A DNA stretch of 64,000 nucleotides from Spirochaetaceae bacterium (GTDB lineage: Bacteria; Spirochaetota; Spirochaetia; DSM-2461). This document shows positions 7,227 to 54,275 of the stretch, in pieces. The stretch is taken from positions 28,781-92,780 of the forward strand of contig JBNAIG010000018.1 in assembly GCA_050031985.1 (NCBI GenBank), in the 5' to 3' direction. The notes under the pieces were generated by a model. It was not told the DNA's origin, did not search any database, and saw nothing but the letters and a program-made list of their open reading frames with translations. Position numbers and translations under genes: made by a program. Positions within the stretch are counted from its first letter, which is position 1; every line of letters starts with the position of its first letter.

Positions 7227-8213
7227 ATGATGTTCTCAGGAGTACTAGCCATGAAATCAACCCTGTTCGGTATTGTCATATGTGTTGCTTTGGGGATCGT
7301 GTCCCGTTTTCTCGCCTCATTTCTCCCTTTGGGGCAGGTCATGACAGCCATTCTTCTGGGGATTGTTTTAGGGAACCTGATAACCCTTAATAAAGAGCAG
7401 AATAAGGGAGTTACCTTTTGTGAGAAAAAGCTCCTGCCCCTGGCTATCGCCCTCATGGGGTTCAATCTGGACTATAAGGTGGTGACCCAAATGGGGATTC
7501 CTATGGTAGTTATTATTATTCTCACAATTCTTATTACCATCGCCTCCGCCCTGGCTCTGGGGAAACTCTTTAGGATTGATCGGGAAATGAGCCTTTTTTG
7601 CGGAGTGGGAAACGCCTTTTGCGGCAGCTCTGCCATTGCGGCCGTTCAAAGCGTAACCGACGGGGACGAGGAGAAGGCGGGGGTATCTATTGCTCTGGTT
7701 AACCTTTTGGGGACTGTGGGGATGTTTGCCCTGCCCGCAGCGTTTCGTTTTCTGATTCAAGTCAGTGATTTTCAGGCCGGGGCTTTTATCGGGGCGGCTC
7801 TTCAGGCGGTAGGGCAAGTAACTGCGGCAGGATTCTCACTGAATGATAATATAGGAGAGGTTGCGGTAATTGTTAAAATGTGTCGTATTCTCATGCTCAC
7901 CCCCTTACTGCTTTTCCTGAACTTTTGGAAAGGAAACGGGGGAAAGCTGAGTGTTCCTCCCTACATCCTCTTTTTTATTCTCTTTTCTGTGGTGGCATCC
8001 TTCCGGTTCATCCCCCCGGGGCTTAAGGAGGGACTTCATTTTGCAGAAAAGGCTTTTCTTACGGTGGCCATGGCGGCGGTGGGAATGAAAACCTCCCTTA
8101 AAAATCTTTCCCGGGAGGGAGGGGATGCTTTATTAACCGGACTGGGCAGCTGGATGTGCCAGCTCTTCTTTCTCTCTTTTGCTTTTTTGTTTCTTGGGAA
8201 AGTGCTGTTTTAA
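7227..8213 (+). CDS. YeiH/UPF0324 family putative sulfate exporter (PSE) membrane protein
   Basis: 328-aa polytopic membrane protein. MKSTLFGIVICVALGIVSRFLASFLPLGQVMTAILLGIVLGNL N-terminus and GxG-rich helices are typical of the YeiH family. Confidence 0.7.
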   Translation: MMFSGVLAMKSTLFGIVICVALGIVSRFLASFLPLGQVMTAILLGIVLGNLITLNKEQNKGVTFCEKKLLPLAIALMGFNLDYKVVTQMGIPMVVIIILTILITIASALALGKLFRIDREMSLFCGVGNAFCGSSAIAAVQSVTDGDEEKAGVSIALVNLLGTVGMFALPAAFRFLIQVSDFQAGAFIGAALQAVGQVTAAGFSLNDNIGEVAVIVKMCRILMLTPLLLFLNFWKGNGGKLSVPPYILFFILFSVVASFRFIPPGLKEGLHFAEKAFLTVAMAAVGMKTSLKNLSREGGDALLTGLGSWMCQLFFLSFAFLFLGKVLF

Positions 8214-10000
8214 TGTAATGTTGATATGAGATTTCTCCCATCGTGCTTACTTTTGTAAAGGGCCATATCTGCTAATTTTAGTAGGTCACTCTGTTTTTGG
8301 TTCCTATCGGGTACCATCGTAGCAATTCCGATGCTAAGGGTTAGATTGGACGCGGCAGATGAATATTCATGGGGGATTTCAAGGTCTTCTATGGCTTGGG
8401 TGATGCGTTTTCCCACTTCAAGGGCTCCTTCCGAATCGGTATCGGGAAGTATGATTGTAAATTCTTCCCCTCCGTAACGGGCGACAAAATCATGGGGGCG
8501 TGAGACTGACTTCTGAAGGGCTTCGGCCACATCCCTTAAACAGTCGTCTCCAGCTTGATGTCCATAAGAATCATTATACTGTTTAAAATAGTCAATATCG
8601 CACATTAGGAGGGATATTTGATGCCTGCTGCGGGTGTGGTGCTTCCAGTGGTCCGATAGGTTGGCATCAAAGAAGCGGCGGTTATATAGTCCTGTCAGTC
8701 CATCGGTTTTACTTATCTCTTCCAATTCACGGTTGGCTTTTATAAGAGCTTCCGTTCTTTCTTCTACCTTTGTCTCCAGTTGGGTTGAATATTTTCGTTC
8801 CGCTTCCATCTTTTCGTTTTTTATTGTGTTGATACGGTCCGAGAGGGCTAGGGACAGGAGAAAAACTTCTAGAGTTGAGCCGATATGAGGTATGAATTCA
8901 AGCAGGGGGATATTGCCCAGGATACCCAGATTTCGGAAATTGAAAAGCACAGCGCTCAGGAGGAAAATCGTCCAGGCAAGGGTGTAGTAACGGGCGATCT
9001 TTAGTTTTTTTATCCAGGCATTGATGCCGGCTGATAAAAGAAAGACCGGCCCCAAGGTTGCGGAGAAGTACCAAACCGAATACATACCTGCCACATAGCC
9101 CGATGTGATGCTTAATATCAGTCCCAGGGCGCTTCCTGCAACGAGAAGAAGAATCAGTTTATCAATTATGGGAAGGCAGTTTTTCTTCGTATTTAGAAAG
9201 CTTCGGCAAAAAAGGCCGCCGAAGAGAAAGGTCAAGTTATAGAAAATAGGCTGTTCCAGGTTGGCCATAAGGGGAGAGTTAGGCCACAGGTACATGGTAT
9301 CCAGCCGGTTTGCTCCCATTAGGGCGAGGACAAATGAGGTAAGGTAAAGAACGTAAAAAAGATAATTCCGGTCCCTGAGAAAAATAAAAAGGAAGAAATT
9401 ATATAGAGCCATAGCTCCCATTATTCCAAAGTAAAGTCCCAGGAACCACTGCTCCCTGTTAATTTTTTCTGCGAGGGCGATCGGAGTTAAGAGATTCAGG
9501 GATATAAGTAAGTTTCCGGTGCTTTCGAAACGCATGTAGACGGTTGTTTCCGAGTGGGGTGGCAGTGACAACTCTCTGACAAAATTATGATATTTCATGC
9601 TGTTGTTCTGAAGAGGATAGTAGTCTCCGCCCGTTCCCTCAGCAACTATATTTTCGGAGCGATAGACATAGTATTGGATATGGTCGATGTGGCCATAGTC
9701 ATTTTCCAGAATCATCGTCTGCTCTTTATTGTGTGGATTCCCGATGGTGAAGGCTGTCCAGTAAGCTCCAGCTACACGGCCAAAGCTGGGTTTCTTTTCA
9801 TTAGACGGAGTTAGATCGCCTTGTTTATCGAGGGTAATAATATCGGCAATATCCAGAGTGCCTACTTCGTCGGACAGATAGCGGAGATGAAAACCGGGGA
9901 AATAGGTTGTCCCAATGTTATCAAGGATAATGGCGGAATCAGCATAGAGGAAAGCGGATGCGAAAAAGAGAAAGACAATTAACCTTTGCAATTTATTCAT
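8210..10000 (-). CDS. Diguanylate cyclase with periplasmic 7TMR-DISMED2 and 7TM (7TMR-DISM) sensor modules
   Basis: Signal peptide, about 170-aa periplasmic domain, 7 TM helices, then GGDEF domain: GLTGLYNRRFFD...LLMCDIDYFKQYNDSYGHQAGDDCL...RYGGEEFTIILPDT. Confidence 0.85.
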   Translation of the reverse strand: MNKLQRLIVFLFFASAFLYADSAIILDNIGTTYFPGFHLRYLSDEVGTLDIADIITLDKQGDLTPSNEKKPSFGRVAGAYWTAFTIGNPHNKEQTMILENDYGHIDHIQYYVYRSENIVAEGTGGDYYPLQNNSMKYHNFVRELSLPPHSETTVYMRFESTGNLLISLNLLTPIALAEKINREQWFLGLYFGIMGAMALYNFFLFIFLRDRNYLFYVLYLTSFVLALMGANRLDTMYLWPNSPLMANLEQPIFYNLTFLFGGLFCRSFLNTKKNCLPIIDKLILLLVAGSALGLILSITSGYVAGMYSVWYFSATLGPVFLLSAGINAWIKKLKIARYYTLAWTIFLLSAVLFNFRNLGILGNIPLLEFIPHIGSTLEVFLLSLALSDRINTIKNEKMEAERKYSTQLETKVEERTEALIKANRELEEISKTDGLTGLYNRRFFDANLSDHWKHHTRSRHQISLLMCDIDYFKQYNDSYGHQAGDDCLRDVAEALQKSVSRPHDFVARYGGEEFTIILPDTDSEGALEVGKRITQAIEDLEIPHEYSSAASNLTLSIGIATMVPDRNQKQSDLLKLADMALYKSKHDGRNLISTLH

Positions 10001-13520: not shown

Positions 13521-14423
13521 CTAGGGTTTACCTTTGGATGAGTTATCCGATTCCGTTAATTCTATGTCCGGGTAGAGTTCACTTATGCAGTCAGGGCAGA
13601 GCCCATGGGAGAATTGAAGGTCCGAATAGCGGCTCATATAGGTTTCTACCTGGTTCCAGTACCCCTTGTCATCACGGATTCTTTTACAGTGGGAGCAGAT
13701 GGGAAGTATTCCCTGAAGTGTTTTTACCTCATCTAGAGCCTCCTGCATTTTAGTCATGTGAAGGAAATTTTGTCTTCTGACAGATGTGATGTTTTTGTGG
13801 AGGGCAAGAAAGATTATATAGTAGACAATCCCCGGGAGAAAGTAGGAGAAGGGGAGGTGGTTATACAGGTATAATTTCATATATGTGGCCAGAAGAAGGA
13901 GCAGAACGTAGGAGGAGAGAATCAGGTAATGCTTTTGCGAAAGCCAGAGGAAGGTTGATATTGACATAAGGGAAAAAATGTACAAAGCCAATTCTTGGCC
14001 GTAATGGAGGTCCAAATAGGAGAGAGCCATTGACTCGGTATAAAGGATAAGGAGGAAAAGAAAGATATGCCTATTATTTACGGTATTTCTCGCTCCTTTT
14101 ATCCTAAAAAAAATATAGAACAACAGGTTTGTAATGGTTAGGAGAAAAAAAATAAGGATGTAATAGGGGGTAAATTGATCGGCTATGCCGGTTTTGGGCG
14201 AGAAAATATTCTGAAGAATGAAGGCGGGAGATATGGCAGCAAAGAGCACGTTAACAATACGGCAGGTTTTTGTGTTGAACCGGATTCTTTCTTCTTTAAG
14301 AAGGTCTTTATCTTCCGGGTTTAATTGTTTGACTGCATCTTTTGAAAGTGAGAAGCCCATAAAATGATTATAGTTTCTTTGTAAGTAAATGGCCAATATT
14401 TTTTTCTTTCCAATTCCTCCCAT
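13521..14423 (-). CDS. Polytopic membrane protein with a short cytoplasmic coiled coil and a C-terminal 4-Cys (CxxC...CPxC) module; putative sensor or signalling protein
   Basis: About 7 hydrophobic helices, then LQGILPICSHCKRIRDDKGYWNQVETYMSRYSDLQFSHGLCPDCISELYP. The same module is found at the C-terminus of CDS 41374..42795. Last gene of the Tat/flavoprotein operon. Confidence 0.5.
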   Translation of the reverse strand: MGGIGKKKILAIYLQRNYNHFMGFSLSKDAVKQLNPEDKDLLKEERIRFNTKTCRIVNVLFAAISPAFILQNIFSPKTGIADQFTPYYILIFFLLTITNLLFYIFFRIKGARNTVNNRHIFLFLLILYTESMALSYLDLHYGQELALYIFSLMSISTFLWLSQKHYLILSSYVLLLLLATYMKLYLYNHLPFSYFLPGIVYYIIFLALHKNITSVRRQNFLHMTKMQEALDEVKTLQGILPICSHCKRIRDDKGYWNQVETYMSRYSDLQFSHGLCPDCISELYPDIELTESDNSSKGKP

Positions 14424-41373: not shown

Positions 41374-42795
41374 TTATTTCTTCTTTATGACTTCCGAGGC
41401 CTCGGGGTAGTATTTTTCGAGGCAGTCCGGGCAGAGGCTATGGCTAAATACGGCGTCCGTATTATCACTTAGGTACTGTTCCACTTTATCCCAGTATCCT
41501 TTGTCATTACGGATGCTTTTGCAGTGGGAACAGATGGGGATGATGCCCTTGAGGGTGTGGATTTGATTCAGGGCATCTTGAAGTTCCCTGTTCTGTTTCT
41601 CAATCAGGCTGATCTTTTCCCTCAGAGCCAGAGTTTTCTCATTAACTTTTAGTTCCAGTTTTCTATTTGTATCGGCTAGAATGCGTCTGGCCCTTTTTTG
41701 TCTATGGTAACGTAAATGGAGTATGAAGAGGGATAGGACAATAAAGATACCTCCCGTAAGGAAAAGGACGGGGTGGTTTTCTATTACTCCGGGAGGTTCA
41801 TTAAAAATTATCGCCCCAGGGGGAAGATCTTGCTGTGTAAGTCCGAATCTCTCCAGTTCATTGTAGTCAAAAAGGAGTTCCCGGGGACATTCGTTAATAA
41901 CCGGAAGGGACGCGACCTGTTCTCCTTCCAGTATTCTCCGAGCCAACATTCCCGCCGTCCGTCCCTGAGTACGGCCGGTAGTCAGAACACCTCCTACTAT
42001 TCCGTTTCCAAAATAGAAATCCCACGAACCGTAAATAGGGACTTCCGAGTTTTGTCTAATCATCCCTATTCCGTCCAGATAGGAAATAAAATCACCCTCC
42101 CTGTCCCTGTTAAAGGTCAATAGGTAAATAAGATCCTCTTTGCCCAGGCCGGAGAGGAAGCGGGGGACCTCATTCAGCTTAAAATCCTGGTAAAATTGGA
42201 AGGTGAAGCGGTCCGAATAGCTATTGAGAAGAGGGAGTAATTCGGCTTTGATGCGGTTTCCCGTATAGCTTTTGTCCAGGATGATTATAACCCGGTTTCT
42301 CTTCGGGTGAAGTTGAGCCATCAGATCCAGATTTGCTTGATAATCAATATACTCCACCACGCCGGTGTAGTTTTCCTTTCCCTTCAAGAGCTCCGGAGAG
42401 TAGTTGTTTATGCCGCAGAAAACCACCGGGATATTCGGATAAAGGGAATCTCCGTACTCCGTAAGAAAGCGGAGGGCGTTGTTGTCTGAGCAGATAATCA
42501 GGTCATAGTGGATATTGGTTAATTGTTTTTTACTCGCTTCAAAGAGGAGAAGTCTTTCAAAGTATTCTTCCCCGGAATTTCGCTTTGTATCGAGGTATTC
42601 AAAGTGGATTTCTACGGAATCGCTTTTTAGGGATTCCTTTATTCCCTGGCTAATACTGTCGGTCCAGTATAATCCCTGATGGTAGGAGTGAATGACCAGA
42701 ACGTTCTTTATTTTATTGGTTCCGTCCACACTTTGGCCGTAGCCCATAAGAGAGGTAAGTAGCAGAAGGATAAAGATAAATAAGTAACGCTTCAT
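41374..42795 (-). CDS. Putative sensor: periplasmic ABC-substrate-binding-like domain, one TM, a coiled coil, then a C-terminal 4-Cys (CxxC...CPxC) module
   Basis: Signal peptide MKRYLFIFILLLLTSLMG. About 330-aa periplasmic domain resembling ABC-type substrate-binding sensor domains. TM FLTGGIFIVLSLFILHL. Coiled coil, then IIPICSHCKSIRNDKGYWDKVEQYLSDNTDAVFSHSLCPDCLEKYYP. Confidence 0.5.
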   Translation of the reverse strand: MKRYLFIFILLLLTSLMGYGQSVDGTNKIKNVLVIHSYHQGLYWTDSISQGIKESLKSDSVEIHFEYLDTKRNSGEEYFERLLLFEASKKQLTNIHYDLIICSDNNALRFLTEYGDSLYPNIPVVFCGINNYSPELLKGKENYTGVVEYIDYQANLDLMAQLHPKRNRVIIILDKSYTGNRIKAELLPLLNSYSDRFTFQFYQDFKLNEVPRFLSGLGKEDLIYLLTFNRDREGDFISYLDGIGMIRQNSEVPIYGSWDFYFGNGIVGGVLTTGRTQGRTAGMLARRILEGEQVASLPVINECPRELLFDYNELERFGLTQQDLPPGAIIFNEPPGVIENHPVLFLTGGIFIVLSLFILHLRYHRQKRARRILADTNRKLELKVNEKTLALREKISLIEKQNRELQDALNQIHTLKGIIPICSHCKSIRNDKGYWDKVEQYLSDNTDAVFSHSLCPDCLEKYYPEASEVIKKK

Positions 42796-53873: not shown

Positions 53874-54275
53874 CTACTTTCGGCAGTCCCCACAGATTCC
53901 CCAGACGTAAACATGGCTTGATTCTCTCCGGAAGCCTTCCGGAAGAGTTCCCATATCTGCACTACTTAAGGGAAAGTCAAAAACCTTACCGCAGCGGCGG
54001 CATTTGCAGTGACCATGGTCGCTTGTATCTCCGTCAAAACGAACCTCATCCCCGTCGATTGTAAGGGCCAGGGCAAGTTGTTTTTCCGAGAATAGCTTTA
54101 AGGTATTGTAGAGGGTCGTTTTGGAAAGACTGGGCATTTCCGGGTGTAGGCTGGAGTAGATCATCTCCACGGTCGGGTGGTTTTTATGAGAACTGAGATA
54201 CTGATAAACAGCTAATCTTTGTTGAGTAGCGCGAATCCCTTTCTCTTCAAGAATCTTTTTTGTTTCCACCATCAT
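53874..54275 (-). CDS. Fur family transcriptional regulator (PerR-like)
   Basis: RATQQRLAVYQYL...HPTVEMIY winged helix, and a HGHCKCRRCGKV...CGDC metal-binding Cys/His cluster. Adjacent to the rubrerythrin gene. Confidence 0.8.
   Translation of the reverse strand: MMVETKKILEEKGIRATQQRLAVYQYLSSHKNHPTVEMIYSSLHPEMPSLSKTTLYNTLKLFSEKQLALALTIDGDEVRFDGDTSDHGHCKCRRCGKVFDFPLSSADMGTLPEGFRRESSHVYVWGICGDCRK

Follow-up and report, generated by a model that had tools for sequence, protein, structure and literature searches.

A compact four-cysteine module in the output position of diverse bacterial sensor proteins

Two membrane sensors encoded in a 64,000-nt stretch of Spirochaetaceae DNA (the whole of which we call the window) end in the same compact module, in which a heptad helix leads into a core with four Cys. 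Judged from sequence, the module is a C-terminal transmitter (output) domain, because its partner domains are inputs only, it alternates with recognized outputs both on the PF04392 chassis of one sensor and between the other sensor and its relative P0168, and it is fused to REC domains with intact acceptor sites. The initial annotation had proposed a compact Cys4 output module, without a family name, that serves different sensors; this holds, and applies far more widely than the two genes indicated. What is new here is an unprecedented transmitter domain; modular sensors with exchangeable outputs are already known.

The two sensor proteins

Both annotated ORFs are present on the minus strand of the window. 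Protein 1 (13521..14423; 300 aa as the longest ORF) is a membrane sensor with the C-terminal module. Protein 2 (41374..42795; 473 aa) combines a signal/anchor, a periplasmic binding domain, a TM helix, a coiled coil and the module. Both have 100%-identical public entries from the same 112-kb contig of a Spirochaetales MAG. The entry for protein 1 (P0075, “hypothetical protein [Spirochaetales bacterium]”) starts at M22 (nt 14360) and is 279 aa long, and that for protein 2 (P0284, “ABC transporter substrate binding protein”) has the same length as protein 2. A promoter-like, sigma-70-like TTGGCC-18-TATAAT sequence occurs at 14396..14367 (minus strand), inside the 300-aa ORF and just upstream of the ATG at 14360, and weakly favors the M22 start (279 aa) over the 300-aa ORF.

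BLASTP between the two proteins returned one significant HSP, confined to the C-termini (52% identity over 81 aa, E 1e-28). All remaining HSPs had E > 1, and the N-terminal parts are therefore unrelated, in line with the original description of unrelated sensors with a common C-terminus. The two 50-residue strings quoted in that description are exact substrings of the translations, but to call them “almost identical” was too strong, as 32 of the 50 positions match (64%). Over the 61-residue module the two copies share 57% identity. Copies from other phyla are 57–75% identical to copy 1, and the window's copy 2 is no closer; among species-representative genomes without the source genome itself, the best module match is 75% identical. 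A six-frame scan of the 64-kb window found just these two copies. We rejected chance similarity of the two C-termini, given the E-value of 1e-28 and a family of >20,000 clusters. Elsewhere in the window (53883..54002, minus strand) is a second stretch with paired Cys, CxxC-X32-CxxC (CRRCGKVF...WGICGDC), unrelated in sequence to the module; a small regulator may have its C-terminal metal site here.

The membrane domain of protein 1 (residues 51–209; 13797..14273, minus strand) has about six TM helices, rather than the seven first counted. This count comes from hydropathy and from the helix pattern of a full-length AF2 model of low confidence (pLDDT 54), used for helix counting only. Pfam has no model for the domain, and protein 1 as a whole matched no Pfam family at E ≤ 10. 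It was not recognized as MASE3 or MASE6 either (PF17159, PF20966; no Pfam match, and an NCBIfam MASE3 match of E 1.2). Its closest TM-domain relative, P0168, is 36% identical over 80% of protein 1 and aligns across all of the TM helices. The two diverge just past the last helix, where P0168 runs into GGDEF, its only Pfam family, in the place of the coiled coil and module of protein 1. The six-TM domain thus counts as a separate, unnamed membrane sensor domain.

Protein 2 was described as a substrate-binding-like domain followed by one TM helix and a coiled coil, and this architecture is borne out. The periplasmic sensor domain (residues 46–321; 41833..42660, minus strand) belongs to PF04392 (ABC_sub_bind; Pfam E 9.4e-12, 45.2 bits against a gathering cut-off of 25.9). 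A single TM helix (residues 343–361; 41713..41769, minus strand) precedes the positive-inside stretch RYHRQKRARR and a cytoplasmic helical linker (residues 362–404; 41584..41712, minus strand), which has a heptad pattern and weak coiled-coil-type matches. Protein 2 is a sensor and not a transporter subunit, since it carries the TM helix, coiled coil and Cys4 module and since the relatives nearest to it, GGDEF cyclases and kinases, share the periplasmic domain. Mis-annotation like that of P0284 is likely in many family members. The cytoplasmic tails are 92 aa (protein 1) and 112 aa (protein 2), longer than the ~80 aa first estimated.

The shared C-terminal module

Copy 1 spans residues 226–287 of protein 1 (13563..13748, minus strand) and consists of a heptad helix (MQEALDEVKTLQG) and a Cys4 core with C243, C246, C276 and C279, and H273. 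Copy 2 spans residues 405–466 of protein 2 (41398..41583, minus strand), with the corresponding helix (LQDALNQIHTLKG), C422, C425, C455 and C458, and H452. The Cys spacing is CxxC-X29-CPxC, not CxxC-X26-CPxC as initially reported.

For conservation we pooled 355 proteins, in 354 of which hmmsearch located 398 module domains. The four Cys are conserved in these homologs: a regex demanding all four, together with the I/V-R and W positions, gave 391 matches against the 398 domains, and the first-to-last Cys span is 37 residues in 389 of the 391. The conserved His noted at the outset is likewise kept across the family, as the His of FSHG. About 24 of 60 module positions are at least 80% conserved in the pooled set. 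Numbered from the first Cys as 0, they are L-17, A-14, L-7, G-5, P-2, I-1, C0, C3, K4, I6, R7, D8, D9, G11, Y12, W13, E17, Y19, H23, F28, S29, H30, G31, C33, P34 and C36. K4, R7, D8, D9, Y12, W13, E17, Y19, H23 and H30 are both conserved and exposed, and many of the polar and aromatic residues other than Cys are at least 90% conserved across phyla.

Ahead of the Cys core the helix has the consensus L-x2-A-L-x2-V-K-T-L-x-G, and its a/d heptad hydrophobics (L-17/A-14/V-10/L-7/L-3) run up to the first Cys with no indels. In PAS-containing members, the PAS-terminal “DITERK” stands at a fixed distance upstream of the module. The module lies 10–34 residues from the C-terminus in all 81 genome loci.

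Stand-alone proteins of 70 aa, made of the helix and the module, also exist (P0004; locus L085, 3113..3325). A 166-bp gap lies upstream of this ORF on two contigs, and it looks like a genuine stand-alone module. A 92-aa protein with the module only (P0008; locus L087, 2708..3467) lies immediately next to a 159-aa PAS ORF, on a contig of 1.5x coverage; most likely the two are one PAS-module gene broken by a sequencing frameshift. Two modules occur per polypeptide in 44 of the top 150 representatives (P0020–P0062, P0066, P0169), in tandem forms such as MASE6-module-MASE6-module and REC-module-REC-module, and two module genes adjoin at locus L058 (2331..6222). Tandem fusion of paralogs or read-through in gene calling may account for these two-module polypeptides and the L058 pair.

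Family size and distribution

An exhaustive hmmsearch of 1.84 billion representatives with the module profile retrieved 24,675 clusters (50% identity) at E ≤ 1e-3, and 20,151 at E ≤ 1e-10. A single-sequence scan of one-genome-per-species contigs with six exact octapeptide patterns gave >600 matches to the module, 561 of them confirmed. Among the best 80 module loci, the majority are from Desulfobacterota, and the others are from Spirochaetota, Leptospirales, Hydrogenedentota, Verrucomicrobiota, Nitrospirota, Acidobacteriota, Bacteroidota/Ignavibacteria, KSB1, Chloroflexota, Gemmatimonadota and Gammaproteobacteria. The range exceeds 10 bacterial phyla. The viral contigs of IMG/VR contained one match only, and we rejected a phage association of the module.

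The first reading could assign the module to no named family, and profile comparison with Pfam, NCBIfam and PDB sequences agrees. With isolated modules as queries, Pfam at E ≤ 10 gave sub-threshold chance matches only (DUF3039, NMD3, Zn_ribbon_HMPTM and HVO_0758; E 0.06–0.22, 11–13 bits against cut-offs of 23–27), and NCBIfam had nothing for the C-terminus of either protein. A full-text literature search that included motif strings, with Galperin's 2006 response-regulator classification outside its scope, returned no description of the module. Residues 6–24 of the module (e.g., 13625..13679, minus strand) had a marginal PDB-sequence profile match (E ~0.02) to animal glutamate dehydrogenases, whose N-terminal “IRRDDGSWEVIEGYRAQHS” hairpin resembles “IRDDKGYWNQIExYxxxHS” of the module. 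The resemblance is probably due to chance, because that stretch has no Cys.

Partner domains and output position

We surveyed domain architectures in 125 representatives and in other module matches, and the proposed reuse on different inputs extends to many partner families. Partners among the 125 are PAS (~50), MASE6 (22), GAF, HAMP, REC, dCache, Reg_prop/Y_Y_Y, PocR, MASE3 and SBP_bac_3; the other matches add CHASE, sCache, VUPS and DUF4118. No kinase, cyclase or HTH domain is among the partner families listed for module proteins, in match lists (top 150 and word-indexed) that lean to consensus-like members, so that the ~24,000 clusters may include rare enzymatic fusions.

The position of the module was initially likened to that of a kinase, GGDEF or other output domain, and the relatives of protein 2 agree with this, in that one sensor chassis ends in the module, in GGDEF or in HisKA+HATPase. 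We searched with the sensor part of protein 2 only (residues 1–385) and counted the ends of the 120 best homologs. Sixty-one end in the module (mean 472 aa) and 51 in GGDEF (mean 578 aa); the rest are two with HisKA+HATPase and six that are partial or other. None of the 120 combines the module with a GGDEF or H-box motif. A 61:51 split on one chassis looks like a choice between alternative outputs rather than output loss.

REC-module proteins of ~205 aa are abundant, and their acidic pair, phospho-acceptor Asp, Thr and Lys are all kept. From the KP of REC to the Cys of the module the distance is 49 residues in 9 of the 11 REC-module proteins in which it was measurable.

Gene neighborhoods

We clustered neighboring proteins of at least 80 aa in 80 module loci to look for a linked partner gene. 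The sole recurrent cluster comprised other, multi-domain signaling proteins (37 loci), and no remaining cluster was found in more than four loci. Small flanking ORFs formed clusters within close relatives only, and three REC-module regulators and one stand-alone module shared no common partner beyond that of two near-identical REC loci.

In the window, protein 1 belongs to a minus-strand gene string and is flanked there by a Fer4 membrane protein/TatC/flavoprotein group on one side and a phosphonate-type ABC transporter on the other; protein 2 comes after a BKACE-family gene. Neither neighborhood was seen to recur at other module loci. At the downstream end of the string that holds the Fer4 membrane protein, protein 1 and the phosphonate-type transporter is a 7TMR-DISMED2/7TMR-DISM/GGDEF diguanylate cyclase (8210..10000, minus strand), which places two different sensor outputs side by side.

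Predicted fold and metal site

The AF2 model of the module is confident (pLDDT 85.8) and predicts a strand-helix-helix-strand-helix order with each CxxC at a strand-to-helix junction. Compared with PDB structures, zinc-finger structures included, the model had no fold match. In a zinc ribbon both ligand pairs come from beta-hairpin knuckles, and in a treble clef the first pair does. The zinc-ribbon or treble-clef fold suggested by the initial annotation is therefore not supported, as the predicted topology differs from both. In the model, the Cys pairs are placed at helix N-termini after parallel-type strands and not on beta-hairpin knuckles, in contrast to centers of the ZAS, Hsp33 and rubredoxin type. 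This topology suggests that the four Cys converge on one site. A single metal ion, most likely Zn, would be bound by CxxC-X29-CPxC, and the site could hold Fe or an Fe-S cluster in place of Zn. We rejected a c-type heme reading of CxxCK, because by topology the module is cytoplasmic or on soluble proteins. If the model is right, the fold may represent a new class of metal-binding domain.

Discussion

We lean, with reservation, toward a reading in which the module is a metal-stabilized Cys4 head, carried by a dimeric coiled coil, and would dock a shared target encoded at an unlinked position. The last turns of the dimeric signaling coiled coil would pass without an indel into a compact head held together by metal. 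A signal would rotate the coiled coil or shift its register and so change the geometry of the dimer's two heads, and this geometry would switch docking to one common, highly conserved target encoded elsewhere in the genome. GGDEF and DHp-type outputs are controlled by dimer geometry. The exchange of the module with such outputs, its indel-free coupling to the helix and its many polar and aromatic residues, near-invariant among the paralogs of one genome as well as between phyla, together suggest a metal-stabilized head with a single unlinked target. In the window, protein 1 (six-TM) and protein 2 (PF04392) would feed two stimuli into the same pathway. Metal binding, dimerization, partner docking and a non-enzymatic mode of action are what we infer for the module, and the docking step is much less secure than the reality of the domain, its output position and the conservation of the Cys4 set. 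The wider proposal that this putatively non-enzymatic transmitter links tens of thousands of sensors and response regulators in more than 10 phyla to one conserved hub or ligand is a tentative one, which we regard as possible rather than probable.

Several known systems resemble the module in part. GGDEF and HisKA/HATPase transmitters share its position and the upstream architecture of a sensor, TM or PAS/REC and a dimeric signaling helix; both are interchangeable with it on the PF04392 chassis, and GGDEF also on the TM domain of protein 1. The module differs from them in its size (~60 residues), in having four invariant Cys and no nucleotide-binding or catalytic motifs, and in lacking any sequence or fold similarity to them. 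By functional analogy only, it can be compared with the signaling tip of MCPs, a non-enzymatic output that is likewise near-invariant across paralogs with diverse sensors. Chemoreceptors with different sensors converge on CheA/CheW via this invariant tip, and a near-invariant output on diverse sensors may, by the same analogy, point to convergence on one shared partner for the module. The tip differs in being a long, metal-free, antiparallel four-helix hairpin, and its partners CheA and CheW are known and often encoded nearby.

Among Cys-rich sites, the Rad50 zinc hook and the C4 finger of DksA/TraR have, like the module, a CxxC at or next to a coiled coil, and their Cys4 Zn sites serve protein-protein contacts. 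The spacing is X17–19 in DksA and Rad50 has one CxxC per chain, against X29 in the module; the predicted topology differs too, and neither zf-dskA_traR (PF01258) nor Rad50_zn_hook matched the module even at E ≤ 10. The CPxC resembles the second knuckle of rubredoxin, and the ZAS anti-sigma domain has a His near its second CxxC (Hx3Cx2C, against Hx2Cx2C in the module). ZAS, Hsp33 and rubredoxin thus share Cys-rich metal sites with the module but have no sequence or fold match to it. The published domain closest in concept is HalOD2, an output domain of haloarchaeal response regulators that follows REC and a helical segment (Galperin et al., 2018, PMC5847659). Its two conserved CXXC motifs, 20–25 residues apart, are predicted to form a Zn finger of uncharacterized function, and it is known from a few halobacteria only and with REC only (PMC5847659). 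Compared by description only, the two differ in distribution and in spacing (20–25 against 29 residues), and Pfam searches of module proteins gave no match to PF08663 (HalX), the family that the helical part of HalOD2 resembles.

The published prediction for the archaeal REC-HalOD2 zinc finger (PMC5847659) is also a parallel for reading the module as a nucleic-acid-binding zinc finger. Its proteins would then be one-component or response-regulator regulators of transcription or RNA, some of them membrane-tethered like ToxR and CadC. DNA binding is typical of response-regulator outputs, REC-module proteins are abundant, and K4-K5-x-R7 and K10 form a conserved basic cluster in the module. We nevertheless consider this reading unlikely. 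With a net charge of −4 to +1 and a pI mostly of 5–7, the module core ranges from neutral to acidic, which argues against simple nucleic-acid binding. Moreover, the putative recognition surface is nearly identical across paralogs and phyla, which would mean one site for every sensor; the structure search of the PDB gave no similarity to DNA-binding folds, and polytopic membrane proteins, with tails of just ~90–110 aa, are numerous among the members. Quite unlikely, in our view, is that the module has no target and is a metal-dependent dimerization clasp or cap that closes the coiled coil in the manner of a zinc hook, with the proteins acting through their other parts, for example as decoys, as sinks for phosphate or by forming heteromers with kinases or cyclases that have the same sensor. 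CxxC pairs at the coiled-coil ends of Rad50 do form inter-subunit Zn sites and offer a precedent. The module always follows a coiled coil and always ends the protein, GGDEF paralogs with the same sensor occur in the same lineages and would allow heterodimers, and the module neighborhoods revealed no partner gene. For a clasp, however, the Cys and a few core residues are enough, whereas so many other residues are at least 90% conserved here. The confident monomer model places both CxxC pairs within one compact unit, 70-aa stand-alone forms such as P0004 exist, and the module/GGDEF split on the protein 2 chassis resembles alternative outputs and not the loss of one.

Cys4 sites can act as redox switches, as in RsrA and Hsp33, and the module might by the same token be a sensor that responds to redox state or metal through Zn release, disulfide formation or a labile Fe or Fe-S site. 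The conserved His residues adjoin the Cys, and the family is enriched in anaerobic and sediment lineages (Desulfobacterota, Syntrophales, Geothrix, Spirochaetes), but it also occurs in aerobic ones (Gemmatimonadales, Vicinamibacterales, Opitutales). Such proteins would be inputs only, yet a REC-module regulator whose phospho-acceptor site is intact requires an output, and the module trades places with GGDEF and kinase cores rather than with sensor domains. We judge this reading improbable. More improbable still is a mini-enzyme or phosphotransfer element that works, for example, through the invariant His of FSHG or a reactive Zn-thiolate. That the module replaces enzymatic outputs and is very highly conserved, including His, Asp, Glu, Arg, Tyr and Ser, would fit this idea, but ~45 structured residues that are mostly metal-site scaffold are very small for a catalytic domain, and there is no similarity to HPt/DHp or any enzyme fold.

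Members of the family are currently labeled “response regulator,” “PAS domain S-box protein,” “MASE3 domain-containing protein,” “ABC transporter substrate binding protein” or “hypothetical.” Signaling censuses count recognized outputs. In Desulfobacterota, Spirochaetota, Nitrospirota, Acidobacteriota, Verrucomicrobiota and other phyla, a considerable part of the sensory repertoire thus lacks an assigned destination. A name for the domain would correct thousands of annotations, and its target would reveal what these organisms regulate with it. The one-to-one exchange of GGDEF and module on identical sensors provides ready-made matched pairs for experiments. If the module, as a docking head with one shared target, does converge on a conserved hub, it would define a signaling route parallel to phosphorelay, c-di-GMP and chemotaxis, found mostly outside the classical model organisms and built, as the model predicts, on a metal-binding fold without structural precedent.
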